From Promethearchaeota archaeon (GTDB lineage: Archaea; Asgardarchaeota; Lokiarchaeia; Sigyniarchaeales; SOKP01): DNA of 64,000 nucleotides. Of this stretch, positions 22,896-39,900 are shown one piece after another. Position 1 is the first letter of the stretch. Each line of letters opens with the position of its first letter. Position numbers and translations under genes: made by a program. Location: positions 123 through 64,122 of the forward strand of contig JBHLLT010000016.1 in the NCBI GenBank assembly GCA_048938855.1. The letters are read 5' to 3'. Under the pieces are notes generated by a model. The model worked only from the letters and a program-made list of their open reading frames with translations. It had not been told where the DNA came from and ran no database searches.

Positions 22896-25800
22896 ATGAT
22901 TAAAATGAATATTTCTAAACGTACTCAAATAAAAGGACTTAGTGTTATTCTACTTATTACGATAATCCCATTAATTATAAGTATATTACCAAGTTCATAT
23001 GTAGATAGAGATAATTCTGTCGTGACCGATAAAAATGAAGGTTTAAATAATCTACAATTAGGGTTACCACCAACAACTTATGATTGGTGGAACAATTCTT
23101 GGAACTTCAGAGTGCCCGTGTCCATTGAAGCAGTAGGGAGTCAACAAGACGCCCCAGTTGAGTTTTTCATAAATTTCACAAAGTACTTTAAAGATTTAGA
23201 TATAGAAAATCCTGAGTTAAACACTTCCACAATCCGAGTAATTGAATATCTCTCCAGTTCTAATTATTATGAAGTTGAGAGTCAATTTGATCCTTATTCA
23301 AGTTCTTATGACCATCAGGAAAATGCTATAGGAGATTTAATTTGGATATTAAATGGTACAACTCCAAATGGACAAACACGAGACTTTTTCATATATTTTA
23401 ATAATGGTACAGATTTTAGTATTCCAGAATCAAATTACGATACTATACGACTTTGGCATGAAGGTTTTGAAGAATATCAATCTGGAGATATTGGAAGACC
23501 AACTGATGGACAAGATATTCAACCAACTTTCTGGGAAATTAGTAATTCAACTTCTGCAAGAGGTAGTTCTTCACTTCATATTTGGGGAAATTGCTGGAAA
23601 TGGTCTGCTACAGGTTCTATGACCGTAAATTCAGATATGAGAGTCACAGCAAAAATGAGATTTGATGATCCAAGTATTCAAAGAGAAATTTCAGGGATTG
23701 GTTTTGCTAATAGCCCTACTAATATTCCTGCCACTGGAAATAGCTATCGCATTAGAGGATCTCAATCATGGGGAACTGCTGGAGGAAATAAATATGTAAA
23801 TCAATATTATACTGCAAACACCTTTTTCTGGTATACATTTATCCCTAGCACCGAATTTTCTCTCAGCTCATTCACATACATTTTTTATATAGCAGATGAT
23901 GATAGTTGGAATAGTCTTGATTTATACTGGGATGATATTTCAATCTGGAATAAACCAGTTCAAACCACTCCCAATAATTCACTTCAAACGACAATAGGAG
24001 ATATCCAACCAATTGCGTACACAATGAAGGTTATCTGTAAAGATGAGGATGGTAATCGAGTTCATAATGCACATATTTATTTAACCAATAACCTGTTCCC
24101 CTCCTATAATCAGGATCATTTAACTGATGAGAATGGAGAGTGGACTTTTGATAATATTGAAAAAGATGCATTCTATAATATTACAGCTAATTATACTCAA
24201 AACGGTCTTAGTAATCCAAAAATAGCTACTGTATTTTACTTTGAAGACTATCAAATCACGCAATTAAATAATCGAATAACTGCTTATCTTAACCTATCTA
24301 AATTCAATTTTGATATAAAAGATAAAGACAATGATCCTATTCAATACGGTTTTGTTCTACTTAAAAATGGTACAGAAACGGTCGGAAAAGCAGTTCTTAG
24401 TGATTCTGGTACAGGATCCATTATATGGATTAATAATACTGCTTATAATTATGAAGTCTACTATGATTATGATTCACTACCAGATATATCAACCTATAGA
24501 TATTCAAATCTACAAATTTACAGTGCACCTGCAACAAAAAATATTGATATATCAACTGAGATAACTAAAATAGTTTTTAATGTTACTGATTTTGTAGATA
24601 ACCTCCCATTTACAAATGCCAAACTAAGGTTCTATAATGAATCGGACTATGACATCGAAAGCCAAATTATCGCTAATGTTACTGTTGATATAACTGGATT
24701 AGCAACTTTTATTTCATTCAGCAACACTTATGGAACTTGGGGAAACTATACAGTAGATATATATTTCGGTGGAAATGAACGAGATTTTCACACAAATGGA
24801 GGTCCATTGGAACATGAATATAACTTTATTTTAATCGATGAGAACTATTCAGAAATCAAAATTCCCTTAAATAAAGATCTGTATAACTCTACAATTAATA
24901 TTATCAGTTATACATCTAATGTCTTTTGGGGAGATGATATTTCTATATATTTCAATTTTACTGCTCAAGATCCTCTTCTACCAAATCCAACATTAGTGGA
25001 TCCAAATGAACTGACTGTTCAAATATATGAAGAACAAATTACTCCTTATGGCGAAGAAGTAAATATCTTATCTTCGAGAATTTCTACTGGCTTTTTTAAT
25101 TATACATTTAATACGGTAGATTTTAATCTAAGAGGGGATTCTGTTTATTACTTCAGAATTACAGGAAATTATAAGAGTTACATATTTATTGCCTTAGATG
25201 TTAAATTTATATTCATCCAAGGACTACCAACTGGTATATCTTATTATGACTACTCATTAACAAAATTGACTGATAAAAAATTTTCGGTAATATTTGGAGA
25301 ATCTGTTAATATAACAGTTGATTATTTTAATTTTTATACTAATGTTTCCTTAGATGGAGCTTATATCACATATAATTGGGATTATGGTTCCGGAATACTT
25401 CTTGATGATCCATTACATGCAGATTACTATTATTTTGAATTTGATTCTTCAACATCACCTAATAGCGCTGAATATATTATTGATATCGAAGCAACTCTAA
25501 CAAATTATAGTACTATCGATGATTCAATTATCGTTGCTATCCAGCCTAGACCCACCACTATTAATGGAACAGCTACATTATTTCAGATGTCACCAAATAT
25601 ATTTGTTTTTGATCAAGTTAACTTTTTATTCGAATATAAAGACACGCTACAAAATCTAAGACTCGGAAGTTTGGATGTCATTAGATATTATTGGAATAGG
25701 TTAGATGAAAATGGAGATCCTCTTAGTGGTCCTGGAAACGAAGGAAGTGGATTTTTAGGTACTGCAGTAAACAATTTATATATTCTAGATTTCGATACAG

Positions 25801-26555
25801 AATCGAGAGAAGTTGGAGAATATTCTATATTTGTTACTATGCAAAAAAATAATTATGAGGTCAGAAATGCGATTATTTTATTGACTATAAGCAAGAGGCC
25901 AATAACAATGCATTTAGATGCTACAGGATTATCTGGAAGTAGAATCAGTGTTGTTCAGGGAACTCCAATTAATTTCAGCATTGTTCTTACTGATGAAACT
26001 TATGGAATCCAACTATTATCTGGCGCAAATATAACACTATGGCTTAATGGAATTGAGATTTCTGTTGACGAAGTTTCTGGTTCACCCGGGACATATGAAT
26101 TATTCTTTCCTACTGCCAATATTAATGCTTTCTTTTTACCTCAAACATTGATGGGAGAAATTACAGTGGAATTAGATAATTATGAGATAGATCCAAGGAC
26201 TATTACAATTGTAGTAAGAATGACAGAAATTTTTCCTGGATTTCCATTGTTTTACTTTTTACTGATAGTAGCAGCTGTAGTAGCTATAGCAGGTAGTTTA
26301 ACTGCATATCGTATGATTCAAAGAGCTAGAATTCCCACTTTTGTAAAGAAAGCAAGACAGATGAAGAGTTTTATTAAATCTAAAAAGACAATTTCAGATT
26401 CTTTATTATACCCCTCCAAGGAGGAATTCATTATACAGAAACTAGGAGATAAATGGGATCAACTTGGATTATCATTAAAAGATATTTATGGCAAAGAAGG
26501 AAAGAAAAAGAAAGGGTTACCAGAATTTAAAAAAGAATTAAAATCAGGTGAATAA
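22896..26555 (+). CDS. giant single-pass surface protein, module 1 (signal/anchor, DUF2341-like domain, CarboxypepD_reg-like beta-sandwich repeats, C-terminal TM helix, conserved cytoplasmic tail)
   Basis: 1219 aa. The N-terminal hydrophobic segment is LSVILLITIIPLIISIL. YDWWNNSWNFRVPVSI...IRVIE...FFIYFNNG resembles DUF2341. Repeats such as VICKDEDGNRVHNAHIYLTN...DENGEWTFDNIEKDAFYNITANYT are prealbumin/CarboxypepD_reg-like. There are many N-x-S/T sequons. The TM helix is FPLFYFLLIVAAVVAIAGSLTAY, followed by a basic tail of about 95 aa. Confidence 0.8.
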   Translation: MIKMNISKRTQIKGLSVILLITIIPLIISILPSSYVDRDNSVVTDKNEGLNNLQLGLPPTTYDWWNNSWNFRVPVSIEAVGSQQDAPVEFFINFTKYFKDLDIENPELNTSTIRVIEYLSSSNYYEVESQFDPYSSSYDHQENAIGDLIWILNGTTPNGQTRDFFIYFNNGTDFSIPESNYDTIRLWHEGFEEYQSGDIGRPTDGQDIQPTFWEISNSTSARGSSSLHIWGNCWKWSATGSMTVNSDMRVTAKMRFDDPSIQREISGIGFANSPTNIPATGNSYRIRGSQSWGTAGGNKYVNQYYTANTFFWYTFIPSTEFSLSSFTYIFYIADDDSWNSLDLYWDDISIWNKPVQTTPNNSLQTTIGDIQPIAYTMKVICKDEDGNRVHNAHIYLTNNLFPSYNQDHLTDENGEWTFDNIEKDAFYNITANYTQNGLSNPKIATVFYFEDYQITQLNNRITAYLNLSKFNFDIKDKDNDPIQYGFVLLKNGTETVGKAVLSDSGTGSIIWINNTAYNYEVYYDYDSLPDISTYRYSNLQIYSAPATKNIDISTEITKIVFNVTDFVDNLPFTNAKLRFYNESDYDIESQIIANVTVDITGLATFISFSNTYGTWGNYTVDIYFGGNERDFHTNGGPLEHEYNFILIDENYSEIKIPLNKDLYNSTINIISYTSNVFWGDDISIYFNFTAQDPLLPNPTLVDPNELTVQIYEEQITPYGEEVNILSSRISTGFFNYTFNTVDFNLRGDSVYYFRITGNYKSYIFIALDVKFIFIQGLPTGISYYDYSLTKLTDKKFSVIFGESVNITVDYFNFYTNVSLDGAYITYNWDYGSGILLDDPLHADYYYFEFDSSTSPNSAEYIIDIEATLTNYSTIDDSIIVAIQPRPTTINGTATLFQMSPNIFVFDQVNFLFEYKDTLQNLRLGSLDVIRYYWNRLDENGDPLSGPGNEGSGFLGTAVNNLYILDFDTESREVGEYSIFVTMQKNNYEVRNAIILLTISKRPITMHLDATGLSGSRISVVQGTPINFSIVLTDETYGIQLLSGANITLWLNGIEISVDEVSGSPGTYELFFPTANINAFFLPQTLMGEITVELDNYEIDPRTITIVVRMTEIFPGFPLFYFLLIVAAVVAIAGSLTAYRMIQRARIPTFVKKARQMKSFIKSKKTISDSLLYPSKEEFIIQKLGDKWDQLGLSLKDIYGKEGKKKKGLPEFKKELKSGE
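26546..26551 (+). promoter_or_regulatory. Shine-Dalgarno-like site for the module-1 partner gene, embedded in the last codons of the surface-protein gene
   Basis: AGGTGA lies 6 nt upstream of the ATG at 26558 and is complementary to the archaeal 16S 3' end (..UCACCUCC). The equivalent site occurs in all three modules. Confidence 0.55.
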
Positions 26556-26557
26556 TA

Positions 26558-27661
26558 ATGCCAATCGGATTAATCATTATGAGATGGAACGAGAGAGTAG
26601 GTACTGAAATAATGAAGAAGTATCCTGAAGAAATAGAAATTACTGATGGGACACTTATGCAAATATATAGTACTCATGAATACAGTGGAGAATCTGGATT
26701 GATATGTTTAATGATTGGATCGTTAAACATTGCTTCTTATTACACTGGCCCTAAAAATGAACATTATGTAATTCTTTTATTAAACATCGATGAAGATCCA
26801 GATTCTTATGAAGAAGGTTTAGTAGATGTTTCTCGAGTTATTCTACAAAATTTAGATAATAATGCGTATTTTGACATGATACCTTCTCTTTTTCAGAGAT
26901 TAGCTGTCTATCCTACACTTAGTGCTGAACAAATACTTGCATTCACTTATTTTGATGAAGTCAAAAGAATGATCATTGATCGTTTAAGAGTAGATGGCGC
27001 TGTATCTAAATCAGAAATTATAATCTGGCTAAAAGATCAGTATAAACAGGGATTTCTTAATATAGATGCGGATATCATAGAATTAATTAAACGCAATATA
27101 ATTAAACAAGTATCAGTAAAAGGAATACCTTCAGAATTATTATTTCTAATTAATGATATTGTGTGTATGCGAGTTCCTCCAGTAAAATTAGTAAAAAATC
27201 CATTAGAATGGGGTTTACCTTCTACACTTGCAGAAGGTTATAAAATTGAAGTGAAAAAATATTTTCAAGCTTATCGACCTTCAGAAACAGATAATTTAAG
27301 AGTATTAGATGTTCTTACTAATCCACAAGCTTATGAAACTTTATGTTTATTAAGAACTGCTATTGTTACAAGAAATGAGCTAGAAAAATTAAAGAAGAAG
27401 GGCGTAGATGACCTTGATAATGTCTTAAAAATGCTATGGGAATCTCAAATAGTACAAATCTTTCGTGACGAGAACGAAAATGAGTACTATGCTCTTCTTA
27501 CTGATTTTTATATAGATCTGATGTTCCCAAAATATCTAATGAACATTATAAAAATGAATTATGAGAATAAGTCAAAAGCAGAACCAGTTTTAATAGAATA
27601 TCTTACTATATTAGAAGATAATTACATTAATATGAAAAGTACCAAAAAATCTAAAACATAA
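26558..27661 (+). CDS. cytoplasmic partner protein, module 1 (uncharacterised family: longin/roadblock-like N-terminal domain + winged-helix-like repeats)
   Basis: 367 aa with no TM helix. It starts MPIGLIIMRWNERVGTEI 2 nt after the upstream stop codon. It aligns over its full length with 32214-33326 and 38785-39900. Domain assignments are inferred from the predicted secondary-structure pattern only. Confidence 0.75.
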   Translation: MPIGLIIMRWNERVGTEIMKKYPEEIEITDGTLMQIYSTHEYSGESGLICLMIGSLNIASYYTGPKNEHYVILLLNIDEDPDSYEEGLVDVSRVILQNLDNNAYFDMIPSLFQRLAVYPTLSAEQILAFTYFDEVKRMIIDRLRVDGAVSKSEIIIWLKDQYKQGFLNIDADIIELIKRNIIKQVSVKGIPSELLFLINDIVCMRVPPVKLVKNPLEWGLPSTLAEGYKIEVKKYFQAYRPSETDNLRVLDVLTNPQAYETLCLLRTAIVTRNELEKLKKKGVDDLDNVLKMLWESQIVQIFRDENENEYYALLTDFYIDLMFPKYLMNIIKMNYENKSKAEPVLIEYLTILEDNYINMKSTKKSKT

Positions 27662-27831: not shown

Positions 27832-30800
27832 ATGAAGATACAAAAAATAAATAGACGTCAATTAATTAGATCATCGCTATTATTAGCAATATTATTTCTT
27901 AACATTTATATCGGATTTTCAGTAAACCTTATTAATTCCAACTATGATAGTGATAATCTTATTAATGTTAAAAACACAGAAAATGATAAATTTTGCAACG
28001 AGTCTCTAAAATCTAGTGTTTTAGGTAATGATACTTGGTGGGATACTGATTTTGCTTATCGTCGATTAATTACTGTTACAAATCCATATGATATCAATTT
28101 TACAGACTTTGGCGTGAGTCTAATTCTTAATTATGCAGAGTTGGGTAGTACAATTCAATCTAATCTTGATGATATTAGAATCATAGAAAATAATCAACTA
28201 CGAAAATATACTGTTTCTAAAGATTATCCCAATATAGGTTTCGCAACTATTTGGTTTGACACTAATATAACGCAATCAACGACTGAAAGAGATACATATT
28301 TATACTTTGGAAATAGTTTAGCAGTAAATTCTGAAGCTAAAACTGTATCAGACAGTTTTGGTTGGATTAAAAATGGAGACTTCGAATTAGATAATAGTAC
28401 TGATCAATATATTAACCCTTATGGTTGGACTTTTTCGCATGATCAAGTAGATCAAATCAAAGATATTAGTGACCCAAGAGAAGCTTCAAATTATTCTCTA
28501 GATAGTTATAATAACTTCGAAAATAATCTTGTCAATATAAATGATAGAGAGATGGCGGAGAGAGTAGATTCAGGATATTATGCATATAAGTGGGGCGGTG
28601 AAGGCTCTTTTCTCCCTCAAGCAGCATGTAAAGACTATGTAGGAACATTTTATTCTTACCCTTTTAAAGTTCCAATAATAGAAGGAGGAAAAATTGGTTT
28701 ACATGTTTATCGCAATGTACGGACCTGGTTTTTCGAAGACCCAGATTCTTCTCTTCCTACAATTTCAAATGATGGCTATTTTTTAAGGCTTTGTAATGGT
28801 TCAGATTCGGAATATACAAATGAAGTTGATTTACATGAAAATATCGGTAGTGGTTATGAAAGCTGGATAGAAACATATGGAGGATTCGCTTATATTTCAC
28901 CAAATAGAAAAACATTAAGATATCATGATGAATTAAAGGAACATTTCCAATTAGACCCTGAAATATTTACTAGATCAAGTACAAGTTCTGACGGGGATTT
29001 GACTGGTTCTTTAGAAATTGATGTTTCTAATTATATGGGTAAGGAAATTTTCATAGAATTTGGTACTTGGGGCCCGGAAGATGGTGATATTCAAACAGTA
29101 AAGTCAGGATTCTTTCAAGTGGATAATATAAAGTTTAATTACACATTATCAGCACAAATTGAAGAACCCCAAGCTCAAGTATCATCAGTTGAGGTAGTTT
29201 TAAAAGATATTGATGGAAGGAGTGTTCCTACAGCAAATGTAATGATTGTTGACAATTCTTATGCAAAAGGATCATCTAATTATTATGTTGCGAACGGAAC
29301 AGGTATTAACGGGAGAGTTACTTTCAATAATATACCTATTGGTTATTATAATATTACTGCTAATTATACATTGGGATCTCAATCAATTGAAGTATTTAAT
29401 AGCATTGAGAAACGTATCGGTCCATATTATTTTAATGGAATAGATTATACTATTGATATTAACCTAAATCTCTGGACAATTGATTTTGAAATTGTAGATT
29501 GGGATGGTATTCCTTTGAAATATGGTTATATTGAGATTAATGAAAGTCTTGGAGGAGCTTTGTTAGATACACTGACACTAGACTCTTCAGGAAAAGCAAC
29601 CTTCCGATGGCTAAACAGTTCGAATTTCTATTATAGAGTTTATTATAATAATGATGATTATGGTATCAATTTTAGCCCTACTATTCTAAATGAGAGTTCT
29701 ATTTCTCGAAGTGATTATGTAAAAGACAACGTGAAATTTAGGCATCATACAATATATGTGAATCAATCTAGTATAGGGAGTTACTCAGTAAGCGAAAAGT
29801 TCTATACGGATGGTTCGCGAACTGTATTAGGAAATAAAAAGATAACCAAAGCAAATATTACTCTGAACAATATGGAAAATTATATGACAGATATCTCTGT
29901 TTATTACATTGATAAAGATGATTCAACTACAGGGAACCTTCTTTATTACAAAGAATATTCTGGTCAAGTTACAAGTGACTTTATTGAACTTGATATAGCA
30001 GAGATTAATAATATCAATCTATTGAATGATAATTACAAAATATATGGATTACTAGTTGAAGTTAATGGGTATAATACTTCACAATCTAATGGATTAATTA
30101 ATGTAAACTTTATTGAAACTTGTAATGTTAAAGTAAGAACCCCATTAGCAAGATTAAATATTCGTTTGACATATTTTAGTGATGTAGACAAAGAATATAA
30201 ACCATTGAGCGGAACAATTAAAGTGATTGATAATGCTACAGGATTCCATTTATTGAATTTATCAGCAATTTCAGATAGAGATGGATATGCTTATGCTCCA
30301 AAAAATTCTTATGAAACACCGTTTTGGTATTTAATTAACAGGGTGTATAATTTCTCAATTGATGTTGCTCACAATCCTAATGTAGATTTCAATATAACAT
30401 ATATCAATCCATCCCAATGGATTCCTGCTCCTGGTGAGAAAATTAAATGGTTTAACTATACACTTTATCAAAACTCATCAATCACTTTTAATGTAATCCC
30501 AGAAGTAGAAACAAATTTTACGCAATATGATACAGAGTTTAATTCATCTTTTGGAATGACTGAAGTGATATGGGGGGAAAACCTAGTTTTCTGGGCAGAA
30601 TTATTATCTACTGATGATGATTGGCAAACATCAGATTTTGTCCCACAGCCTCCTGGTAGTTGCATCTTAACAATAAAATTAGCAGGATCAGATGAAGTTT
30701 TGAAAACTCTAGAGATGAATTATAATGGAAATGGTAATTATACATTGACTTACAACTCTGGATTGATTTCAGCTGGGAATGATTGGGAATATTATAATAT

Positions 30801-32214
30801 TGAAATAAATGGATATCATCCAATTTATGATGATCCAACTCCGTTGGTTTATTTAGTAAAAGTATTAGCAAAACCTACTACGATTAGCGCTCATGACTAT
30901 AGTTCACTCAATCTAATACCTTCTAGAGAATATTCAGCATATTTCGATGAGTATATTAATATTACAGTTAGATATACAGAAACTGAATTTGGAACGGCTT
31001 TAACTAACGCTCTTTTAAGTTATGAATGGGTTGGTCTTAATCCAATTAGTATCTATTCAGATCCTATAAACCACGAATATTTTACATTTACAATTAATAC
31101 AGGCGATGCGCAGAGTACAGGTCTAAAAGTAATTAGCATTACTGCCTCTTTTGAAAATTATACTAAACAATCGGATTTCATTGTATATCTTAATATTCTC
31201 GAAAGAAAAACAACTCTAAATTCCAAATTAGATGACCTATCTTATATTAGCTCAAGTGTTTATGTTCAAGATCAAAGAAATTTCATTTTCATGTATCGAG
31301 ACGCCAACACTAATAATATAATTGGAGATTTGGCTATTCATAATTTTGTTTGGGAAGAATTATATGAAAACGGAACAAAAGTACCTGGTAGCTTTGGCTC
31401 AGGAAGCCTAATTCAAAATATAAATCATAGCTATACTTTAGATTTTAACACAGAATTAAAACCAGTAGGATACTATTTCTTGTATGTAACTCTTAAACAG
31501 GACAATTATAAACAAAAAAATGCCTTTATTTATTTGGAAATTATATTAAGAGAATTTACTGTAACTATTCAAGATCCCCAATTAGGTAGTAACAATCAAA
31601 TTATTATAACTCAAGGATCTGATATTGATTTTGAAATCCATTTATGGGATGATACTAGATCGATAGAGCTACAAAATGCTATTATTAAATTAAATTTTAG
31701 GGGAATAAATTATACTTTTAATGAAATTCTGACTGAATTTGGTATATATAACGCATCAATTCTAACTAGGAATATAGATACATTTTTTACGGCGCAAACA
31801 TTTGTAGGAAAGATCTACATTGAAGCAGCTAATTTCACTAGCCAAGAGTTTACAATCACAATCACAGTAAAAATGCAAGAAATATGGCCTGGAATGCCAA
31901 CTTTCTATTTCATTTTAATAACATCTGCAATTGCCGCTGTTGTAGGAAGTGTAGTTGGATATAGAGTTATAACGCGAGCAAGAATACCACAACATGTTAA
32001 AAAGATTAGAAAAATCAAAGGTTTAATAAAATCTAAAAAGATGATAGCAGAATCATTTACAGTGCCAACTAAAGAACAAATGATGGTAAAACTATTTGGA
32101 GATGAATGGAAAGAAATAGGATTGTCAATAGAAGAAGCATTAGGGATTACTGATATAAAAAAGAAATCTTCATTAAAAGATAATAAATCATTAGAGCGAG
32201 GTGAGATTGACTAA
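27832..32214 (+). CDS. giant single-pass surface protein, module 2
   Basis: 1460 aa. The signal/anchor is LLLAILFLNIYIGFSV. The DUF2341-like start is DTWWDTDFAYRRLITVTNP...IRIIENN...YLYFGNS. CarboxypepD_reg-like repeats include VVLKDIDGRSVPTANVMIVDN...GRVTFNNIPIGYYNITANYT. The membrane-proximal region, TM helix (FYFILITSAIAAVVGSVVGY) and tail are homologous to modules 1 and 3. Confidence 0.8.
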   Translation: MKIQKINRRQLIRSSLLLAILFLNIYIGFSVNLINSNYDSDNLINVKNTENDKFCNESLKSSVLGNDTWWDTDFAYRRLITVTNPYDINFTDFGVSLILNYAELGSTIQSNLDDIRIIENNQLRKYTVSKDYPNIGFATIWFDTNITQSTTERDTYLYFGNSLAVNSEAKTVSDSFGWIKNGDFELDNSTDQYINPYGWTFSHDQVDQIKDISDPREASNYSLDSYNNFENNLVNINDREMAERVDSGYYAYKWGGEGSFLPQAACKDYVGTFYSYPFKVPIIEGGKIGLHVYRNVRTWFFEDPDSSLPTISNDGYFLRLCNGSDSEYTNEVDLHENIGSGYESWIETYGGFAYISPNRKTLRYHDELKEHFQLDPEIFTRSSTSSDGDLTGSLEIDVSNYMGKEIFIEFGTWGPEDGDIQTVKSGFFQVDNIKFNYTLSAQIEEPQAQVSSVEVVLKDIDGRSVPTANVMIVDNSYAKGSSNYYVANGTGINGRVTFNNIPIGYYNITANYTLGSQSIEVFNSIEKRIGPYYFNGIDYTIDINLNLWTIDFEIVDWDGIPLKYGYIEINESLGGALLDTLTLDSSGKATFRWLNSSNFYYRVYYNNDDYGINFSPTILNESSISRSDYVKDNVKFRHHTIYVNQSSIGSYSVSEKFYTDGSRTVLGNKKITKANITLNNMENYMTDISVYYIDKDDSTTGNLLYYKEYSGQVTSDFIELDIAEINNINLLNDNYKIYGLLVEVNGYNTSQSNGLINVNFIETCNVKVRTPLARLNIRLTYFSDVDKEYKPLSGTIKVIDNATGFHLLNLSAISDRDGYAYAPKNSYETPFWYLINRVYNFSIDVAHNPNVDFNITYINPSQWIPAPGEKIKWFNYTLYQNSSITFNVIPEVETNFTQYDTEFNSSFGMTEVIWGENLVFWAELLSTDDDWQTSDFVPQPPGSCILTIKLAGSDEVLKTLEMNYNGNGNYTLTYNSGLISAGNDWEYYNIEINGYHPIYDDPTPLVYLVKVLAKPTTISAHDYSSLNLIPSREYSAYFDEYINITVRYTETEFGTALTNALLSYEWVGLNPISIYSDPINHEYFTFTINTGDAQSTGLKVISITASFENYTKQSDFIVYLNILERKTTLNSKLDDLSYISSSVYVQDQRNFIFMYRDANTNNIIGDLAIHNFVWEELYENGTKVPGSFGSGSLIQNINHSYTLDFNTELKPVGYYFLYVTLKQDNYKQKNAFIYLEIILREFTVTIQDPQLGSNNQIIITQGSDIDFEIHLWDDTRSIELQNAIIKLNFRGINYTFNEILTEFGIYNASILTRNIDTFFTAQTFVGKIYIEAANFTSQEFTITITVKMQEIWPGMPTFYFILITSAIAAVVGSVVGYRVITRARIPQHVKKIRKIKGLIKSKKMIAESFTVPTKEQMMVKLFGDEWKEIGLSIEEALGITDIKKKSSLKDNKSLERGEID
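32198..32205 (+). promoter_or_regulatory. Shine-Dalgarno-like site for the module-2 partner gene
   Basis: GAGGTGAG lies 8 nt upstream of the ATG at 32214. That ATG overlaps the upstream TAA by 1 nt (TAATG). Confidence 0.55.
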
Positions 32215-33326
32215 TGCCAATAGGATTAGTAATAATGAGATGGGATATAAAAGTGAGTACAGAAATCCTCGCTAAGTATCCAAGGGAACTGATTATTAGT
32301 GATGAGACTCTCATGCAAATTTATGCTGCTCATGAATATACTGGGGAGCCGGGTATGATTAGTTTATTAGTTGGGCCTTTAAACATTGCATCTTATTATA
32401 CAGGACGAGAAAAACCGCTCTATATCATACTATTACTAAACTTAGATGAAGACCCCGATACTTATGAAGGTGGTCTATCTGATATCTCACGAGTGATATT
32501 TCAGAATTATGAAGATAAAGCTTATTTGGATATGATTCCGTTTCTCTTTCAAAGATTATCCACTTATCCTAATTTAAATGATGAACAAAGCTTAGCTTTG
32601 ACTTATTTAGATAACGTAAATTGTTTGATAATAGAGAGATTAAGAGAAGAAGGGGTAATTACTAAGTCAGAATTAAAGATCTGGTTAAGAGATCGATATC
32701 GAGAAGGGTTTTTTGATGTAGATGCTATTTTAATGGAACTCATTAAAAAAGAAATCGTTAAAGAAACATCAGTAAAAGGAATGCCCTCCGAATTGATTTT
32801 TCTTATTAATGATCTTTTAATGATAAGAAGGCCCCCTATAAAATTACTAAAAAATCCTATAGAACGAGGACTTCCGGAGAGATTTGTAGAGGAATATAAT
32901 GTTGCTGTCAGAAAATTCTTTCAAAAGTACCGACCTTCAGAAGAAGATAATCTAAAAATCCTTGATCTGGTTATTGGAGACCCACAGGTCTATGAAATAT
33001 TGAGACTTCTAAGGATTTCAATAGTAACTAAGAATGTATTGGAAAAACTTCGGAAAAAAGGAGTGGACGATATAGATGGTGGTTTAAAGAAATTATGGGA
33101 AAGTCAGTTGATACAAGTATTTCAGGATAACAAGGGGAATGAGTATTATGCTTTAATTTCTGATTTTCATTTATCTTTAGTATATCCTAAATATATGCTT
33201 AATATGATCATTCAACAATATACTGTAAAATCAAAATCAAGTAGTGTTTTAATCGAGTATCTAAATGTTCTTGATAACAATTATCGATCTATCAAACTGA
33301 AAGCGGATGTAAAAGAAGAAGACTAG
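32214..33326 (+). CDS. cytoplasmic partner protein, module 2
   Basis: 370 aa starting MPIGLVIMRWDIKVSTEI. It is collinear with the module 1 and 3 partners. Confidence 0.75.
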   Translation: MPIGLVIMRWDIKVSTEILAKYPRELIISDETLMQIYAAHEYTGEPGMISLLVGPLNIASYYTGREKPLYIILLLNLDEDPDTYEGGLSDISRVIFQNYEDKAYLDMIPFLFQRLSTYPNLNDEQSLALTYLDNVNCLIIERLREEGVITKSELKIWLRDRYREGFFDVDAILMELIKKEIVKETSVKGMPSELIFLINDLLMIRRPPIKLLKNPIERGLPERFVEEYNVAVRKFFQKYRPSEEDNLKILDLVIGDPQVYEILRLLRISIVTKNVLEKLRKKGVDDIDGGLKKLWESQLIQVFQDNKGNEYYALISDFHLSLVYPKYMLNMIIQQYTVKSKSSSVLIEYLNVLDNNYRSIKLKADVKEED

Positions 33327-33335
33327 ATATTATTA

Positions 33336-33349
33336 TTTTTTTTTTTTTT
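33336..33349 (+). terminator. oligo(T) terminator candidate after module 2
   Basis: A T14 run begins 10 nt after the TAG at 33324-33326. Confidence 0.5.
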
Positions 33350-33367
33350 AAACTTTTAAACTTAATT

Positions 33368-34408
33368 TTATAGATTGCTTAAATAACCTTTTAATTTAAT
33401 TGCTTTTTCATGAAATTCCTTATAAAGATTATCATCGCCTAATTCTAAGCACAGATCTGAAATTTTATCAAAATACTCTGCGGTCTGGGCAATATCTCCG
33501 TTTTCTAAACTAACTTTCGCTTGGTGAATCAACTGATCTCTTTCGAATAAAGGTTTTAATAATGGTGAAGCATCAGTGCTAACTTCTAAGATATCTGCAA
33601 TAATTTGAATCATTTTTTCTCTATTATTTGGATCAATTGCTATCATTGAATATGTTTTCAAGCCAAGGATTTCTTCAATGTTTTGTATACTTAAAGCATT
33701 ATCCAAATCTTGTTTGTTACCTATAATAGCAGTATGGGTATAAGGGGCATGTTCCTTTACTAATTCAATAAAAAATTTGCTTTTTTCGACGTTTTCCAAT
33801 GTAGAGTCTGTAATGATAAGAACAGCATCACTTCCTTTAATAAAATCATTCCAGAGATAACTAAATTGTTCTTGTCCAGCAAAATCCCATAAATGAAAAT
33901 ATAATTTTCCAATTTTAACAGTTGAGATCTTCCCTGTTATAGTGGGGATATGGACAGATGGAATTTCAGTTGCGCAAATTAATGTTGTGGTGGTTGTTTT
34001 TCCAACACCAGAAAATCCCACTAATGAAATCTTGGTCTTAAGATTTCTATGGATAGAATCTACTATTGGATCAAGTAATTCCATCAGAGAAGAATCTAAG
34101 TTATCTATAGCATCACCAAAAGTATCTAAAAATTCTTTTCGAAGATTTGCTAATTCACTTTTAGATCGAGAGAGATCATCATTAATGTCGGTTATAAACA
34201 TAAATATTAATTTAAAATCCTCTTCTAATACAAAAATTATCTTATATTTAATATAATCATAACTATTGAGCTCAATACCAGTACCCTTTTTAGACACTTC
34301 CATTATTTCTTGGTAAAGTTTATTAAAATCTTCTTCTGATATTGCTTTACCGAAATTTTTATTGTAAAGTACTTTTTCATCCCTTAAAATATAAACTTGT
34401 CTTAACAT
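33368..34408 (-). CDS. small Ras-superfamily GTPase with N-terminal longin-like domain and C-terminal helical extension
   Basis: 346 aa. G1 is GFSGVGKTT, G3 is WDFAGQE and G4 is GNKQD. About 125 aa N-terminal to the P-loop (MLRQVYILRDEKVLYNKNF...YKIIFVLEEDFKLIFMFITD...) has a longin/SRX-like beta-beta-alpha-beta-beta-beta pattern. Confidence 0.75.
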   Translation of the reverse strand: MLRQVYILRDEKVLYNKNFGKAISEEDFNKLYQEIMEVSKKGTGIELNSYDYIKYKIIFVLEEDFKLIFMFITDINDDLSRSKSELANLRKEFLDTFGDAIDNLDSSLMELLDPIVDSIHRNLKTKISLVGFSGVGKTTTTTLICATEIPSVHIPTITGKISTVKIGKLYFHLWDFAGQEQFSYLWNDFIKGSDAVLIITDSTLENVEKSKFFIELVKEHAPYTHTAIIGNKQDLDNALSIQNIEEILGLKTYSMIAIDPNNREKMIQIIADILEVSTDASPLLKPLFERDQLIHQAKVSLENGDIAQTAEYFDKISDLCLELGDDNLYKEFHEKAIKLKGYLSNL

Positions 34409-34933
34409 ATTATCCAGTCTAATTTCTATAGAATTGTAGGAGTAAAAAGTCGATTATTTTCTTATTTAAAAATAAATTAAATGGTAATATTTTTCTTTGA
34501 TTCTACAATCTAAATTAAAATATTTAAATTTTTAGAAAATGACAAATATGAGTGGCATAATGTAGTATTAATTTATTCAAATTTAGACTCAAAAAAAAGA
34601 ATTAAGTGAACGTATTATATAGTTTACATAAATCTTTTAATTAATTATATATTTATTGGCAAGGACTTGAATTTATTTCTATTTACTATAATAATATCAG
34701 ATGTGAAAAAAACCTTCTCTGTGTTAACGAAATATTTGGAAATAACACATAATTCATTTCAATTTATGTTCAAATTGGTTTAAACCATCATTTTATTGGT
34801 ACATATTATATAATATTCTATAGTATTATCGTTGGATAAAAAGTTAAATACTAAAATTTGTATAATAAATGATAAAAAACTCTTTTTATTAAAAAAGGAT
34901 TATACACAATTTAAAAAATAAATTGAAATAAAC

Positions 34934-37900
34934 ATGAAAGGACTAAGAATTGATTCAAAGAAGGTAATTTCTCTTACATTTTTATTGATTCTCTCATTGA
35001 GTTCAGTTTTATTATTATTTCCATCAAATTTTTTGAATTCAACAGAATTCAATCAAAATCCAGAAGAAGATAAAAAAGATAATAATTTCCGCCCATTGTT
35101 AAATGGTCCAATAGGTGAAGATCCTTGGTGGAATGTATCATATCAATGGCGCCAATGTATCAATATTACAAATCCGGGAGATTATAATTTAACTAATAAT
35201 TTCATTAGTATTCAGTTTAATTATGCAACTTTACGTGATAATTATAATATGGATCCTAACCTATACGACGTTAGAATAGTAGAGAATAATGTGGTAAGAA
35301 AATATTATGTAAAGAAAGACTTTCCTAACCTCGATACCGCAACTATATGGTTCGAAAATAATGTTACAACAGGAGAATCTGAATATGATACTTATATGTA
35401 TTGGGGGAATGCGTCCATTAATAATCGTGGAAGTAAACATCTCAATTATGATCCATCTGGATCCTCTTGGTGGCAATTTGAAGAAGGTTCTGGAGGGTAT
35501 GATTCTATTGTTCATGATTCATTAGATAATGCTGACGGTCATCTTTATGGAAGTAGTAGTAGTTATTATCCAGATTATGATTCAGATAGTGCTGTTGGAG
35601 AATATTCAATAAGTTTTGATGGTTCGCATGATTTTATATATATTGAGGATTCATTACATTATACTAATCCAAATGAGATTTCAGCTGTAACTGTTAGCTG
35701 TTGGTTTAAAACATCATTTTCAAGTAGTGGAAATTGGGATAACTGGGCGTTTTTTGATTTTGATAGATCAGAATATTTCAATTTCTTTATCACTGGAAAT
35801 GGAAGAATAGGTTTTGCTAGTTCAGCTACAGGTTATAGCGGTCAAAATGACTTTTTTGGGAGCGTTTCAGGTTTGAATGATGGTGAGTGGCATTTTGCCT
35901 GTGTAGTTTATGATGGAGTTGACAAATACATATATGTTGATAATTATGCTCCAGAGATTTGGGCCAATGCTATGGGAGGAAATGCTTTTGGAACCGGTAC
36001 TGATAGATGGGGATTTATCGGCGATGGTTCTGAAGCTACAGCAGAAAATGGAAATAGAAACAATTTTTATTATGATGGAAATATTGATGAAATTAGATAT
36101 TTTGATTATGCTGTTAATCCTGATGAAATTCAATGGCTAGCAAATTATTATTCAATTGATACAAATTTATTATCTGTTACAGAGCGAGCTGCTGCAGTAA
36201 CTATCACAGTAAAAGATATTGATAATCGATTAGTTCCTGGAGCAGAAGTTTCTTTATGGAAAAACTCTACTGATATCTTAGTATTACGTGGTGTTCCATA
36301 TACTGAATATTCCTCATCAGATGGTACAGTGTCTTTCACAAAAGTGCCTTTTGGTTTTTACAATATTACTGTGAATTATACTCTCAATTCCGGTTTGTAT
36401 GAAGAAGTTGTTTATGATAGCAGAGTTCAACCTCCTGGTGAAGTAGAATTCAAGGGATTAATTGTCAATGTTAACGTTACTGCAGATCTTTGGACAATTG
36501 ATTTTGAAGTAAATGATTGGGATGGAGATCCATTTGACCACGGCTTTGTACAAGTGGGAAATGCTACAGATTATATATTAGAAACTTTAACTTTAGACTC
36601 TGGGGGAACTGCAACCTTTCGCTGGACTGATCAACCCAATTATAATTATACAGTATATTATGATAATGTAGATTATCTAGGAAATCCAACTCGTTTAAAT
36701 TCTAGTACCATTACATATACTGGGCCAGCAATTTATGTTGAACATGTAAGAACAAGTATGTCTAAATTAGATATAAGAGTTATTGATGACACAGAAACTG
36801 TACCTGTAGAAGGTATTACAGTTAGAGTTGAGAACAGCTCATCAGGTGTTCATATAATTGATCTTAAAACAGATGATAATGGTAACGCATACGGTTTAAC
36901 TAATAGTGATGTTGGCTTTTGGTATAAAAGAAATACTATATATAACTTATCCTTATGGGTTGTGACAGAACAACGTACATTCAGAGTAAATTCTTCAGAT
37001 CAAGCTTTTAATCCTTCTACAATTTTAGATTACTATGAATACAATTTAAATTCAAGTTCTTCCTTAGTATTTGAATTAGATTTAAACTACCAAAACAGGT
37101 TATCTCGATTTTATAATAATAGTCTCGTTGCTGATTATAGTGTTGTTTTTGGTCAAAATATGTCATTTTCGATTACGTTAGAAACTTCTGATACTGGTCT
37201 TCCCGGCCCATGGGTAGCTGATGATGGTGTTGGGACAACAATAAGTTGTATAATTAAAAGTACTGCTATTGGAAACCCTACTATATACACAAAGAATATG
37301 GATTATACTATAAATGGAACATTTACTAGTGAAATTAACTCGAGTCGTTTTTCTGCTGGTGACTATGGTAAATCCTATATTGTCACTTTATCAGGTGTTA
37401 AATCATACTATAATAGTCCTGAAGATATCTTATTTGTTATATCAATAGACTCAATTTCTACTGGTATGAGCTTCCATGATTATTCTTCAATGCCCGATGA
37501 ATTACCTATAAATGAAGTCTCTCAGTATTATGATGAATTAATCAATATAACAGTAAAATATTATGATAAAAATAATAATCAAACTTTAGTTGCGGATACA
37601 TTTACTTATACTTGGGATTATGGTTCTGGCACTGTAAATTCTGATCCTTTAAATCCAGGATATTATACAGTTGAGATAGATACATCAGCAGCTACTAATG
37701 TCGGCAAATATCTTATAAAATTCACAGCAGGACGAGAGAATTATACAAAAATTGATAATTATGGATTATTTATCAATATCTTATCAAGACCGACGACCAT
37801 TAATGGTGAAGATGGAATTTTATATATCTCCCAAGACATCTTCATATTTAAAGAATTGAACTTTACTTTTATTTATTTAGATGAGATGAAAGGTACGCCT

Positions 37901-38785
37901 ATTTCAAATTTAGATGAAATGAGTTATTTATTACAAAAGCTTGATGAAAATGGTGATCCTATACCTGGTACTGCCGAAACAGGTTCTCTAGTAGCAGGAG
38001 TAGATGAGTTTATTTTGGACTTTAATACAGAAACAAGGCTAGATGGAGAATATTCAGTAATTGTGACTTTAGACAAAATGAACTGGGATCACAGAATTGC
38101 TATTATTTCATTGACAATAATGAAAAGAGAAGCGGATGTTACATTACCTGAACCTCCATTTGTTGGTACCAAAATATCAATCGCTTCAGGAGCAGCTTTA
38201 AATTTTGCTATTACTCTTACTGATCCAAATAATGAAACAGTTCCAAATGCTCCGATAAGAGGAGCAAATGTATATTTAACTATACAAGGTAGAGATATTC
38301 CATTTACTTATAATGGCAGTGGTGTTTATATTATTCAACCAACAGTTATTGCTGATGCCTTTTTTATGCCTCAAACATTTACAGCTACTCTCACTATTGA
38401 GAAACAGTATTTCTCCACTTCGGTAACTAGTATTACAGTAGTAGTTAATATGCAAGAAATCTTTGGATTTCCTATGTTCTATTTCTTGATGATAGTAGGA
38501 GCGGTTGTAGCCGTCGTAGGAAGTTTAGTTGCTTATCGTACCATCCAGAGAGCTAGAATTCCAAAGTTCGTTAAAAAAGTGAGAGAAATGAAGAAAAATA
38601 TAAAAGGAAAGAAAGATATTTCAGAATCACTATTATATCCAACTAAAGATGAATATATTGTGAAAAAATTAGGAGAAAAATGGGAAGTAATTGGATTATC
38701 ATTAGATGAAATTATGGGTCTCAGAGGTAAAAAGTCTAAGAAATTACCCGGAATGAATCAAGAATTTAAAGGAGGTGTTGATTAA
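34934..38785 (+). CDS. giant single-pass surface protein, module 3 (DUF2341-like + LamG/concanavalin-like + CarboxypepD_reg-like repeats, TM, conserved tail)
   Basis: 1283 aa. The DUF2341-like start is DPWWNVSYQWRQCINITNP...VRIVENN...YMYWGNAS. The LamG_3-like segment is FDGSHDFIYIEDS...VSCWFK...WHFACVVYDGVDKYIYVDN...IDEIRYFDYAVNPDEIQWL. The TM helix is FYFLMIVGAVVAVVGSLVAY. Confidence 0.8.
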   Translation: MKGLRIDSKKVISLTFLLILSLSSVLLLFPSNFLNSTEFNQNPEEDKKDNNFRPLLNGPIGEDPWWNVSYQWRQCINITNPGDYNLTNNFISIQFNYATLRDNYNMDPNLYDVRIVENNVVRKYYVKKDFPNLDTATIWFENNVTTGESEYDTYMYWGNASINNRGSKHLNYDPSGSSWWQFEEGSGGYDSIVHDSLDNADGHLYGSSSSYYPDYDSDSAVGEYSISFDGSHDFIYIEDSLHYTNPNEISAVTVSCWFKTSFSSSGNWDNWAFFDFDRSEYFNFFITGNGRIGFASSATGYSGQNDFFGSVSGLNDGEWHFACVVYDGVDKYIYVDNYAPEIWANAMGGNAFGTGTDRWGFIGDGSEATAENGNRNNFYYDGNIDEIRYFDYAVNPDEIQWLANYYSIDTNLLSVTERAAAVTITVKDIDNRLVPGAEVSLWKNSTDILVLRGVPYTEYSSSDGTVSFTKVPFGFYNITVNYTLNSGLYEEVVYDSRVQPPGEVEFKGLIVNVNVTADLWTIDFEVNDWDGDPFDHGFVQVGNATDYILETLTLDSGGTATFRWTDQPNYNYTVYYDNVDYLGNPTRLNSSTITYTGPAIYVEHVRTSMSKLDIRVIDDTETVPVEGITVRVENSSSGVHIIDLKTDDNGNAYGLTNSDVGFWYKRNTIYNLSLWVVTEQRTFRVNSSDQAFNPSTILDYYEYNLNSSSSLVFELDLNYQNRLSRFYNNSLVADYSVVFGQNMSFSITLETSDTGLPGPWVADDGVGTTISCIIKSTAIGNPTIYTKNMDYTINGTFTSEINSSRFSAGDYGKSYIVTLSGVKSYYNSPEDILFVISIDSISTGMSFHDYSSMPDELPINEVSQYYDELINITVKYYDKNNNQTLVADTFTYTWDYGSGTVNSDPLNPGYYTVEIDTSAATNVGKYLIKFTAGRENYTKIDNYGLFINILSRPTTINGEDGILYISQDIFIFKELNFTFIYLDEMKGTPISNLDEMSYLLQKLDENGDPIPGTAETGSLVAGVDEFILDFNTETRLDGEYSVIVTLDKMNWDHRIAIISLTIMKREADVTLPEPPFVGTKISIASGAALNFAITLTDPNNETVPNAPIRGANVYLTIQGRDIPFTYNGSGVYIIQPTVIADAFFMPQTFTATLTIEKQYFSTSVTSITVVVNMQEIFGFPMFYFLMIVGAVVAVVGSLVAYRTIQRARIPKFVKKVREMKKNIKGKKDISESLLYPTKDEYIVKKLGEKWEVIGLSLDEIMGLRGKKSKKLPGMNQEFKGGVD
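38771..38777 (+). promoter_or_regulatory. Shine-Dalgarno-like site for the module-3 partner gene
   Basis: GGAGGTG lies 7 nt upstream of the ATG at 38785, which overlaps the upstream TAA (TAATG). Confidence 0.6.
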
Positions 38786-39900
38786 TGCCAATAGGATTAG
38801 TAGTAATGAGATGGGATGAAAGAGTTGGAACTGAAATTCTTGCAAAATATCCTGAAGAAATTAATGTAACTGATAAAACCCTAATGCAAGTATACAGTAC
38901 TCATGAGTACAGTGGAGAATCTGGTATGATAAGTTTAATGATTGGTTCCTTAAACATTGCCTCATATTATACAGGACCTGATAAAGGATTTTATATCCTC
39001 TTACTTCTAAGCCTTGATGACGATCCTGATTCTTATGAGGGAGGATTGATTGACATATCACGCATAATTATCCAAAATATGAAAGATAATGCTTATACAT
39101 CAATGATCCCTACTTTATTTAGAAGGCTTTCCGTTTATCCTACATTAAATAATGAGCAACGACTTGCTATTACATATCAAGATGAAATTAAAAGGATGAT
39201 TCTAAACCGTTTAAGGGATGAAGGGGTGGTATCTAAGTCGGAATTAATGGTCTGGCTGAAAGACCAATATAAACAAGGTTTTGTAGATTTAGAAGGAGTG
39301 TTAATTGAACTTGTTAAACGTGATATCGTTAAAGAAACATCAGTTAAAGGTATGCCTTCAGAACTTATATTTTTAATACAAGATATAATTGCTTTAAGAG
39401 TACCTCCGGTTAAAATGTTAAAGGATCCTGCTACTCGAGGTCTACCTGTACAACTTGTAAATGATTACCTCATGGAAGTTAAGAAATTCTTTCAAAATTA
39501 CCGACCAACAGAAGGAGACAATCTTAGAATCATAGATATTCTTATCAATCCTCAAGTTTATGAAACTTTAAGGTTACTAAGAACAGCGATAGTTACTAAA
39601 AATGATCTTGAAAAACTAAGAAAAAAAGGGGTAGATGATCTTGATGATGTATTAAAAGTGCTATGGGACACTCAAATGATTCAAGTTTTCCAAGATGAGA
39701 GGAATAACGAATACTATGCCCTCCTGTCAGATTTCTATCTGAATTTAATATTCCCAAAATATCTCTTAAACATAATCAAGAATGTATATGATCAAAAGTC
39801 TAAAGCAAACCAAGTTTTAGTTGAATATCTAACTGTTTTAGAAAATTCTTATCAAGAAATTAAAGCAGCTGCTAAAGCTGAAGCAAAAGCTAAAGTATGA
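38785..39900 (+). CDS. cytoplasmic partner protein, module 3
   Basis: 371 aa starting MPIGLVVMRWDERVGTEI. It is collinear with the other two partners. Confidence 0.75.
   Translation: MPIGLVVMRWDERVGTEILAKYPEEINVTDKTLMQVYSTHEYSGESGMISLMIGSLNIASYYTGPDKGFYILLLLSLDDDPDSYEGGLIDISRIIIQNMKDNAYTSMIPTLFRRLSVYPTLNNEQRLAITYQDEIKRMILNRLRDEGVVSKSELMVWLKDQYKQGFVDLEGVLIELVKRDIVKETSVKGMPSELIFLIQDIIALRVPPVKMLKDPATRGLPVQLVNDYLMEVKKFFQNYRPTEGDNLRIIDILINPQVYETLRLLRTAIVTKNDLEKLRKKGVDDLDDVLKVLWDTQMIQVFQDERNNEYYALLSDFYLNLIFPKYLLNIIKNVYDQKSKANQVLVEYLTVLENSYQEIKAAAKAEAKAKV

Follow-up and report, generated by a model that had tools for sequence, protein, structure and literature searches.

A longin-Arf-like GTPase gene of a Promethearchaeota archaeon and its conserved association with genes for surface proteins and MPIGL proteins

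The analyzed stretch of DNA, herein referred to as the window, comprises 64,000 nucleotides (nt) of contig JBHLLT010000016.1 from a Promethearchaeota archaeon, an Asgard archaeon of the Lokiarchaeia type, and has a G+C content of about 30%. On its minus strand, the window contains a gene for a small GTPase that is conserved together with an operon of two genes. This triad consists of the single GTPase and an operon for a fast-evolving single-pass surface protein (herein also referred to as the receptor) and an acidic cytosolic protein, MPIGL. According to sequence comparison and structure prediction, the GTPase has three parts: a longin-type N-terminal domain (N-domain), an Arf-like G domain with an apparently complete set of nucleotide-binding and catalytic motifs, and a conserved three-helix tail. 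We infer a mechanism, for which we see slightly less than an even chance, in which the triad would form a GTPase switch close to the membrane, with longin-longin pairing as its means of regulation. Published work already covers longin-GTPase fusions of Asgard archaea, so the architecture is not new; the GTPase adds a member to it, and what is new is the conserved triad. No paper on this triad was found in the literature.

The window contains three modules, each formed by a protein of 1219-1460 amino acids (aa) followed by an MPIGL protein. The GTPase gene is located between modules 2 and 3, as listed below.

33368..34408, minus strand: longin-Arf-like GTPase gene, 346 aa, ATG start, stop codon at 33368-33370 (open reading frame [ORF] and homologs)
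32214..33326, plus strand: MPIGL2, 370 aa, predicted longin domain and two winged-helix-like units (AlphaFold2 [AF2], Foldseek), TAG stop codon at 33324-33326
27832..32214, plus strand: module 2 surface protein, 1460 aa, with a C-terminal transmembrane (TM) segment at nt 31882-31962 and a basic 83-aa cytoplasmic tail at nt 31963-32211
34934..38785, plus strand: module 3 surface protein, 1283 aa, with LamG, a TM segment at nt 38459-38536 and a basic tail
38785..39900, plus strand: MPIGL3, 371 aa, TAATG-coupled to the module 3 surface protein (junction sequence)
33327..33367, no strand: convergent spacer, 41 nt, with a T14 run at 33336-33349 (sequence read)
34409..34933, no strand: divergent spacer, 525 bp, 18.7% G+C (alignment of 10 orthologous spacers)

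Neighborhoods of the GTPase gene were scanned in one genome per species, which gave 80 loci (numbered with L below), and counts were taken only over loci with room for the neighbor on the contig. An MPIGL-type gene was found downstream of the GTPase gene and convergent with it, 38-646 nt away, in all 46 orthologous loci, and a divergent MPIGL module on the module 3 side was found in 33 of 39. These counts bear out the synteny with the MPIGL modules that the earlier note on this DNA had expected of orthologs. In loci with at least 75% identity, the MPIGL2-type gene is convergent and 38-125 nt downstream (35/35), and MPIGL3 is upstream (29/29). In loci with 62-68% identity, MPIGL was found downstream in 11 of 11 but MPIGL3 upstream in only 4 of 10. 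The strongest link of the GTPase is with the convergent module 2, not with module 3, which shares the divergent spacer.

Part of this synteny is plain collinearity, since the wider neighborhood is also conserved in closer genomes. Four long contigs, with orthologs of 66-83% identity, have the same order of genes: RuBisCO, MPIGL3, receptor 3, divergent GTPase, convergent MPIGL2, receptor 2 and, beyond receptor 2, genes for a methyltransferase, S25e, and a Rag-like GTPase. The conservation of RuBisCO, methyltransferase, S25e, and Rag-like GTPase genes among closer genomes, together with that of an aminotransferase neighbor, would agree with the view that the GTPase has an unrelated function and that its adjacency to the modules is gene order inherited among related Lokiarchaeia genomes. 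The genes are also convergent or divergent and hence not one transcript, and in the survey of MK-D1, GTPase genes generally do not share operons with longin or roadblock genes (Tran et al., PMC10933270). However, in the 62-64% lineage (L044, L047, L049, and L054) the triad of GTPase, MPIGL2, and receptor is kept while all other neighbors differ, the spacing within 38-646 nt being retained; the GTPase-MPIGL link is therefore regarded as more than inherited collinearity. Moreover, a paralog of about 59% identity, encoded in the same genomes, has MPIGL downstream in 0 of 25 loci (upstream, 0 of 18), against 46 of 46 for the ortholog, and both partners carry a longin, a domain type known to regulate small GTPases. 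Inherited order as the full explanation is thus decidedly unlikely.

The GTPase ORF is not a chance ORF, because 1363 homologs were found and the best 120 of them are nearly all of similar length. These 120 are 66-95% identical to the window protein, are named 'ADP-ribosylation factor-like protein' and come from metagenome-assembled genomes (MAGs) of the Promethearchaeota/Lokiarchaeia type. Proteins from MAGs named Thor-, Odin-, Hod-, Hermod-, Hel-, or Heimdallarchaeota share 77-96% identity with proteins from MAGs labeled Lokiarchaeia or Promethearchaeota, and many of these taxon labels are probably unreliable. An antisense ORF of 104 aa (33942-34256, plus strand) lies wholly within the conserved GTPase gene and was treated as spurious. 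The parts of the GTPase are encoded as follows, all on the minus strand.

34037..34408, minus strand: predicted N-terminal longin-type domain, residues 1-124 (AF2 topology, homolog evidence)
33575..34036, minus strand: Arf-like G domain, residues 125-278 (Pfam Arf, PDB Arf matches, Foldseek)
33995..34018, minus strand: G1 / P-loop GFSGVGKT, residues 131-138 (invariant in 32 orthologs)
33869..33889, minus strand: G3 / switch II WDFAGQE, residues 174-180, with Gln179 at the catalytic position (invariant; aligns with Arf WDxGGQ)
33707..33718, minus strand: G4 NKQD, residues 231-234 (invariant in 32 orthologs)
33371..33574, minus strand: C-terminal tail, residues 279-346 (68 aa), the SPLLKPLFER motif and then three predicted helices (AF2, conservation)

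From the letters of this DNA alone, the earlier note had read a minus-strand ORF with canonical G1, G3, and G4 motifs, preceded by about 125 aa and followed by a helical tail of about 60 aa. The ORF and its motifs are present, the N-terminal segment is 124 aa long, and the tail is somewhat longer (68 aa), with three helices within residues 285-344 of the AF2 model. Among the 32 full-length orthologs of the motif alignment (65-95% identity to the window GTPase), G1 GFSGVGKT, G3 (WDFAGQEQFSYLWN), G4 NKQD, the switch-I sequence IPTITG, and the SPLLKPLFER that follows the G domain show no or almost no variation. All three motifs of the Ras superfamily are found in the window protein: GxxxxGK[ST], DxxGQ (DFAGQ, 175-179), and NKxD. 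The position of G5 is occupied by YSM(I/V)A, versus the canonical SAK/CAT.

The G domain is closest to Arf. Pfam Arf (PF00025) matched residues 120-254 with E=8e-19 and 68.2 bits (cut-off, 22.3), Ras scored 52.1 bits, and TIGR00231 (small_GTP) 47.4 bits, above its cut-off of 42.5; Gtr1_RagA (PF04670) reached 19.1 bits, below its cut-off of 22, and over residues 126-183 only. Among solved structures, Arf3p and Arf1 are the nearest in sequence (E~2e-13), with the Asgard protein GerdArfR1 (8oun/8oum) also found, and nearly all of the best 60 PDB sequence matches are Arf or Arl. Likewise, the best 50 Foldseek matches of the whole GTPase model are all Arf/Arl, GerdArfR1 among them. Eukaryotic Arf and Asgard ArfR (HodArfR1, GerdArfR1; PDB 8OUM/8OUN) are thus the best matches of the G domain in both sequence and fold. 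The window GTPase apparently shares the IPT of switch I with Arf: in the alignments, the PT of Arf switch I falls opposite the IPTIT of the window protein, whose T156/T158 are invariant and which lies in a region of low AF2 confidence (residues 133-158). Alignments to Arf have no gap between this PT and the WD of G3, and the interswitch is therefore of Arf length.

Three features set the protein apart from Arf. Switch II is an invariant WDFAGQ, where the aligned Arf sequences have GGQ (WDxGGQ); a 68-aa helical tail is added; and 124 residues precede the G domain, so that there is no free N-terminal helix. An N-terminal amphipathic helix that is released on GTP binding is the defining feature of Arf (Vargova et al.). 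On the evidence of sequence and model, Arf-like is the most fitting name for the GTPase, which we would not place in the Arf family proper. The alignments to Arf start by pairing query residues 115-117 with Arf residues 6-10, which places the last helix of the N-domain at the sequence position of the Arf amphipathic helix. This helix (106-123) is amphipathic, yet it is modeled as part of the N-domain.

The AF2 model of the GTPase, built on the ortholog alignment, has a mean predicted local distance difference test score (pLDDT) of 73.6 and a predicted TM-score (pTM) of 0.54. The helices of the tail (285-302, 306-322, and 326-344) have block-mean pLDDT values mostly of 74-92. No Pfam family was found at cut-off in the flanks of the G domain (residues 1-119 and 255-346). 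Compared with Rag/Gtr proteins, the modeled C-terminus consists of three helices without strands and contains no roadblock domain.

Residues 1-124 are longin-like by prediction, a reading of the earlier note that is supported here, as is its linkage of the gene to the modules. It rests on structure prediction and on transitive sequence evidence. In the AF2 model (elements by DSSP), this segment has the order E2-9, E12-18, H25-41, E49-52, E55-62, E67-74, H79-103, and H106-123, i.e., a bb-a-bbb-a-a topology, which is the longin order with its five-stranded sheet. Block-mean pLDDT is about 77-87 over residues 1-120, except for the loop 41-50 (55). An exhaustive search with residues 1-125 gave 78 cluster representatives, many of them 350-750 aa long. 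The match is at the N-terminus of these relatives wherever that end is present, and those bearing a name are Promethearchaeota. In all 10 relatives tested, an Arf-like G domain directly follows the N-domain, and the C-termini are variable. The Pfam survey covered 39 paralogous N-domains, 22-40% identical to the window domain, for which the commonest weak matches were Fuz_longin_1, Longin, and Clat_adaptor_s, all of them longin folds. One homolog, P0163, which matches the window N-domain with E=7.9e-11, exceeds the cut-off of Clat_adaptor_s (sigma-adaptin, PF01217; 23.1 versus 22.5 bits, residues 2-107 aligned to profile positions 2-105) and scores 20 bits with Fuz_longin_1; a second homolog aligns residues 1-101 to profile positions 1-98.

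Direct comparisons of the N-domain gave less. No curated longin-fold family of Pfam matched the window's own N-domain above threshold, BLASTP of the N-domain against AP2 sigma gave no match, and a profile of the 39 N-domains found only chance-level matches among PDB sequences, e.g., protein A repeats. The best 50 Foldseek matches of the whole GTPase model are to the G domain only and are uninformative on the N-domain. Comparison with sigma-adaptins by hhalign gave a weak match (P=0.008) that is collinear, 1-99 versus 1-97, for five templates, of which only AP2S1 (AP2 sigma) was verified, against 2jkr. Additionally, residues 41-87 of the N-domain, which form the b3-b5 region, match a protein of 2461 aa (P0160) at ten separate places; these matches may reflect a repeat protein or a compositional artifact.

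The constant fusion of the N-domain to the N-terminus of an Arf-like G domain (10/10) also fits a self-contained switch, in which the GTPase longin would bind its own G domain or that of a homodimer partner, as in SRX/SR-beta-GTP or Rag dimers, and MPIGL would not be needed. A paralog of the GTPase exceeds the SRPRB cut-off (25.7 versus 25 bits), the paralog functions without an adjacent MPIGL, and homodimers of longin/roadblock-GTPase architectures were predicted by Tran et al. However, such a switch leaves the exclusive conserved adjacency of the ortholog to MPIGL modules unexplained, and with a pTM of 0.54 the model shows no confident inter-domain packing. We consider this explanation very unlikely as a replacement for longin-longin pairing, with which it is compatible and not mutually exclusive. 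The likeness to the signal recognition particle receptor (SR) lies in a longin-like domain, the SRX of SR-alpha, that is combined with an Arf-related GTPase, SR-beta, at a membrane. In the SR system, these are separate chains with the TM anchor on SR-beta, and the GTPase domain that SR-alpha itself contains is of the SRP type; in the window, in contrast, a single soluble chain combines the predicted longin with the Arf-like domain, and a third protein provides the TM anchor. The window GTPase does not have the SRX+NG composition of SR-alpha: its G domain is of the Ras-superfamily/Arf type, and no SRP54-type family was found among its Pfam matches at E<=1.

The second predicted longin of the triad is that of MPIGL. 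The MPIGL proteins of the three modules are 367-371 aa long and have 706 homologs, all annotated as 'hypothetical'; no family or relative was found in Pfam, NCBIfam, and PDB-sequence searches. MPIGL models as a longin domain followed by two winged-helix-like units, an assignment that is new here. The predicted order of elements is that of a longin (E2-11, E15-22, H30-43, E47-53, E56-62, E70-75, H81-97, and H103-117), and the domain is followed by two H-H-H-b-b units. Mean pLDDT of the model is 72.5, and block means are 76-90 over residues 1-110. All of the best 22 Foldseek matches, and most of the best 50, are longin proteins, often with probabilities of about 1: Fuzzy, VAMP7, NPRL2/3 of GATOR1, AP2/AP1 sigma, Sec22b, Ykt6, and COPZ1, and further DENND, FLCN/FNIP, TRAPP, and the Lokiarchaeota longin 8yqg. 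For the NPRL2/3 chains, E is about 1.1-1.3e-2 at a probability of 0.98-1.0. At the end of strand 1, W10 is invariant and D11 near-invariant.

The winged-helix-like units suggest another role, in which MPIGL would bind DNA and the receptor tail would sequester it in the manner of an anti-sigma factor, the GTPase being a co-factor or a target gene of this membrane-tethered transcription control. Apart from the two H-H-H-b-b units, this would agree with weak Foldseek matches to archaeal Phr and to CodY winged helix-turn-helix regulators, with the translationally coupled membrane/cytosolic pair, which resembles anti-sigma/sigma operons, and with a conserved block beside a TATA-like element upstream of the GTPase gene. 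However, MPIGL is acidic (net charge -9, isoelectric point [pI] 5.2), including its winged-helix units (pI 4.8 and 6.6), which argues against DNA binding, for which acidic or neutral units are atypical. The regulator matches are of low probability, with query TM-scores of only 0.13-0.17, and tandem winged helices also make protein-protein contacts, e.g., in ESCRT-II (match 2zme_A). Transcription control is accordingly highly improbable.

The large proteins encoded upstream of the MPIGL genes have matches to DUF2341, LamG, and Ig-like domains, a hydrophobic N-terminus, a single C-terminal TM segment, and more than 2 N-x-S/T sequons per 100 aa. Their cytoplasmic tails are 81-83 aa long and basic (+8 to +12, pI about 10; for module 2, +8 and pI 9.9). 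These tails are better conserved than the rest of the protein: between modules they are 48-64% identical, versus about 30-39% for the ectodomains, and across loci the TM segment and tail of the module 2 protein are 45-83% conserved, versus 33-79% for its ectodomain. Over the whole system, conservation is 79-92% for the G domain, 65-93% for MPIGL, and 30-80% for the ectodomains.

The tail is also the part that stays with MPIGL. In modules 2 and 3, the stop codon of the receptor gene and the start codon of the MPIGL gene overlap as TAATG, and the coding end of a receptor tail lies a few nt upstream of MPIGL in 70 of 80 MPIGL genes. In four genomes, the module 3 receptor is reduced to the TM segment and tail (about 90-115 aa of homology) and is still directly upstream of MPIGL3:

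L012, 9121-9435: TM+tail-only module 3 receptor
L020, 8771-9049: TM+tail-only module 3 receptor
L023, 9083-9385: TM+tail-only module 3 receptor
L046, 9202-9543: TM+tail-only module 3 receptor

The ectodomain therefore appears dispensable, and the tail-MPIGL pair is kept.

A tail that is the conserved part of the receptor, kept even without the ectodomain, could also be cargo. In this alternative, the sigma-adaptin-like longins of the GTPase and MPIGL would recognize the tails, and the GTPase would act as an Arf-like recruiter of adaptors that sorts, clusters, or positions surface proteins, e.g., in protrusions. The G domain is indeed Arf-like, the best Pfam relative of the N-domain family is the clathrin-adaptor small chain, Foldseek matches of MPIGL include AP2 sigma, AP1 sigma, and COPZ1, and lokiarchaeal cells display many complex surface proteins (PMC9834061). 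However, no large adaptin, solenoid subunit, or coat gene is present in the cluster, no canonical dileucine or tyrosine motif was seen in the tail sequences, and cultured lokiarchaea are reported to be without internal compartments (PMC10933270, PMC12290439). We regard a cargo-adaptor role as unlikely, though not negligibly so.

In the switch that we favor, the acidic MPIGL would dock on the basic receptor tail at the membrane; the charges are complementary (tails, +8 to +12; MPIGL, -9; GTPase, -17). The MPIGL longin would then pair with the GTPase's own longin, forming a platform that controls which nucleotide the tethered G domain carries, so that the state or location of the surface protein would set the nucleotide state of the GTPase and the GTPase tail would then engage effectors. 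Since helix 106-123 aligns with the Arf amphipathic helix, an interswitch movement of the Arf type could link the longin domain to the nucleotide state. Two or three receptor modules would share one GTPase.

Eukaryotic longin-dimer platforms (Mon1-Ccz1, Fuzzy-Inturned, NPRL2-NPRL3, FLCN-FNIP, TRAPP core) act as exchange factor or GTPase-activating protein (GAP) for the bound G domain. In these regulators and in C9orf72-SMCR8, two longin proteins are likewise combined with a small GTPase; the MPIGL model matches the longins of Fuzzy, NPRL2/3, FLCN/FNIP, and TRAPP, and W10-D11 of MPIGL sits where C9orf72 has W33-D34. In contrast to them, MPIGL has no DENN or further longin domains, has winged-helix-like units, and lacks the GP motif. 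A second likeness is to Ragulator-Rag and MglA-MglB, where, as proposed here, a membrane-anchored scaffold of the roadblock/longin superfamily positions and regulates a small GTPase. In the triad, in contrast, the predicted fold variant is longin instead of roadblock, a C-terminal roadblock domain is absent from the GTPase, and the anchor is a giant surface protein versus the lipidated LAMTOR1 of Ragulator.

Several observations weigh against longin-longin pairing, in addition to the wider collinearity and the lack of co-transcription between the convergent genes given above. The Foldseek E-values of MPIGL are weak, from 5.7e-3 to 0.15, with none below 1e-3 among the best 50, and the models of GTPase and MPIGL both have a mean pLDDT of only about 73. 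Comparison of the GTPase and MPIGL family profiles by hhalign gave no significant similarity; the two longin domains alone gave a weak in-register match (P=0.006). No sequence match of MPIGL to solved GATOR1 or FLCN chains or to any solved longin protein was found. In GAP-type longins, a GP motif precedes strand 2 and an arginine finger is present (Novak Vanclova et al., PMC12290439). Compared with the GAP-type longins NPRL2/FLCN/SMCR8, MPIGL shows a weak longin-fold match, no GP, with S15-T16 at that position (T16 invariant), and no invariant Arg that could be an arginine finger within residues 1-100.

Among known Asgard proteins, the closest class in organism group and architecture is that of the longin/roadblock-GTPase fusions, as presented by Liu et al., the 2024 MK-D1 survey, and Zhu et al. 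(2025). Tran et al. (PMC10933270) counted 74 small GTPases in MK-D1, of which 26 are joined to roadblock or longin domains, and Zhu et al. (2025) describe longin N-termini in the Asgard Arf clade (AArfs). In these accounts, as in the window, a longin is N-terminal to an Arf- or Rag-like G domain and the protein is annotated as 'ADP-ribosylation factor-like'. These papers present the class from surveys and AF2 models, and, according to them, its GTPase genes mostly have no conserved longin neighbors and Asgard GTPases are rarely in informative neighborhoods. The window ortholog differs from the fusions covered there by its fixed three-helix tail and by the partner operon conserved beside it.

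Small GTPases and longin/roadblock proteins number in the dozens in Asgard genomes, and for almost none is a partner or role known. One highly conserved GTPase now has fixed candidate partners, a second predicted longin protein and the cytoplasmic tail of a surface protein, so that the question of what Asgard GTPases switch, and at which membrane, is reduced to one of three-protein binding and GTPase activity. The triad is a candidate for what connects the unusual cell surface of lokiarchaea with eukaryote-like regulatory modules. A bolder view, which on balance we think unlikely, is that the triad would be an archaeal forerunner of receptor- or cargo-coupled Arf signaling, in which the conserved tail of single-pass surface proteins recruits a longin/winged-helix adaptor that pairs with the sigma-adaptin-like longin of the GTPase and thereby switches the GTPase at the plasma membrane. 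On this view, the link from the Asgard cell surface to eukaryote-like GTPase/longin machinery would be direct and genetically defined, one step short of Arf-adaptor-cargo.

The spacers on both sides of the GTPase gene correspond to the earlier description of a gene converging on module 2 across a short gap and sharing a 525-bp AT-rich region with the divergent module 3 receptor gene. The convergent spacer, counted from the ORF ends, is 41 nt, and its T14 run is likely the terminator of the module 2 operon. The divergent spacer is exactly 525 bp. Alignment of the 10 orthologous spacers showed two conserved blocks, with a poorly conserved stretch of about 330 nt between them: one on the GTPase side (about 34490-34545, about 60-140 nt upstream of the GTPase start) and one on the module 3 side (about 34837-34883, about 50-100 nt upstream of the module 3 start). 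Judged from this sequence pattern, the spacer appears to hold two separate promoters instead of a common control region. The sequence TTTAAATA on the minus strand (34521-34528), about 113 nt upstream of the GTPase ATG, is a good candidate for an archaeal TATA element; this distance would imply a long leader. About 25 conserved nt lie beyond this TATA-like element. Rfam found no family in 33000-35200, only sub-threshold small nucleolar RNA noise. A search for RNA runs that would show co-expression gave none; the DNA runs are sediment and mangrove metagenomes.

Further features of the window lie on the outer sides of modules 2 and 3.

22896..27661, plus strand: module 1, formed by the surface protein gene at 22896-26555 and MPIGL1; an extra copy, closest to module 3
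26558..27661, plus strand: MPIGL1, part of module 1 (ORF)
20036-20350, plus strand: gene for a ThiS/ubiquitin-like small protein, just upstream of the Rag-like GTPase gene; the pair is conserved in L001, L002, L004, and L005
about 20502-21431, plus strand: Gtr1/RagA-type GTPase gene (full-length alignment, 83% identity, to a 311-aa ortholog)
40005-41342, plus strand: RuBisCO large-subunit homolog, directly after module 3 and kept at this place in most orthologous loci

Module 1 is probably a recent duplication, because an extra MPIGL1-type gene was found only in three close relatives, L007, L008, and L018. The tail of its surface protein shares 64% identity with the module 3 tail and 48% with the module 2 tail. 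The Rag-like gene has no in-frame ATG, GTG, or TTG between the preceding stop codon and the P-loop, and the product of its ortholog begins with Ile; the start codon is therefore probably non-canonical. A pseudogene was ruled out by the full-length, frameshift-free alignment to the ortholog.

The paralog of about 59% identity has the same three domains and a long Pro/Lys-rich C-terminal extension, is 600-740 aa long, and has another conserved neighborhood.

L057, L060, L068-L070, L074-L079, L084, and L086 (about 10001-12100): loci of the paralog

It is always preceded by a 163-aa gene, with genes for a 175-aa small GTPase and a 1400-aa repeat protein nearby. The 163-aa gene was suspected to encode a roadblock protein; it had no Pfam match, and no claim is made for it. 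The divergent lineage also has, at a distance of a few kb from the triad, an ORF of 320-323 aa whose start, MLYFLFLYQxESGELLYEKEF..., resembles that of the longin N-domain family.

L044, 18821-19792, minus strand: 320-323-aa ORF
L049, 18321-19283, minus strand: 320-323-aa ORF

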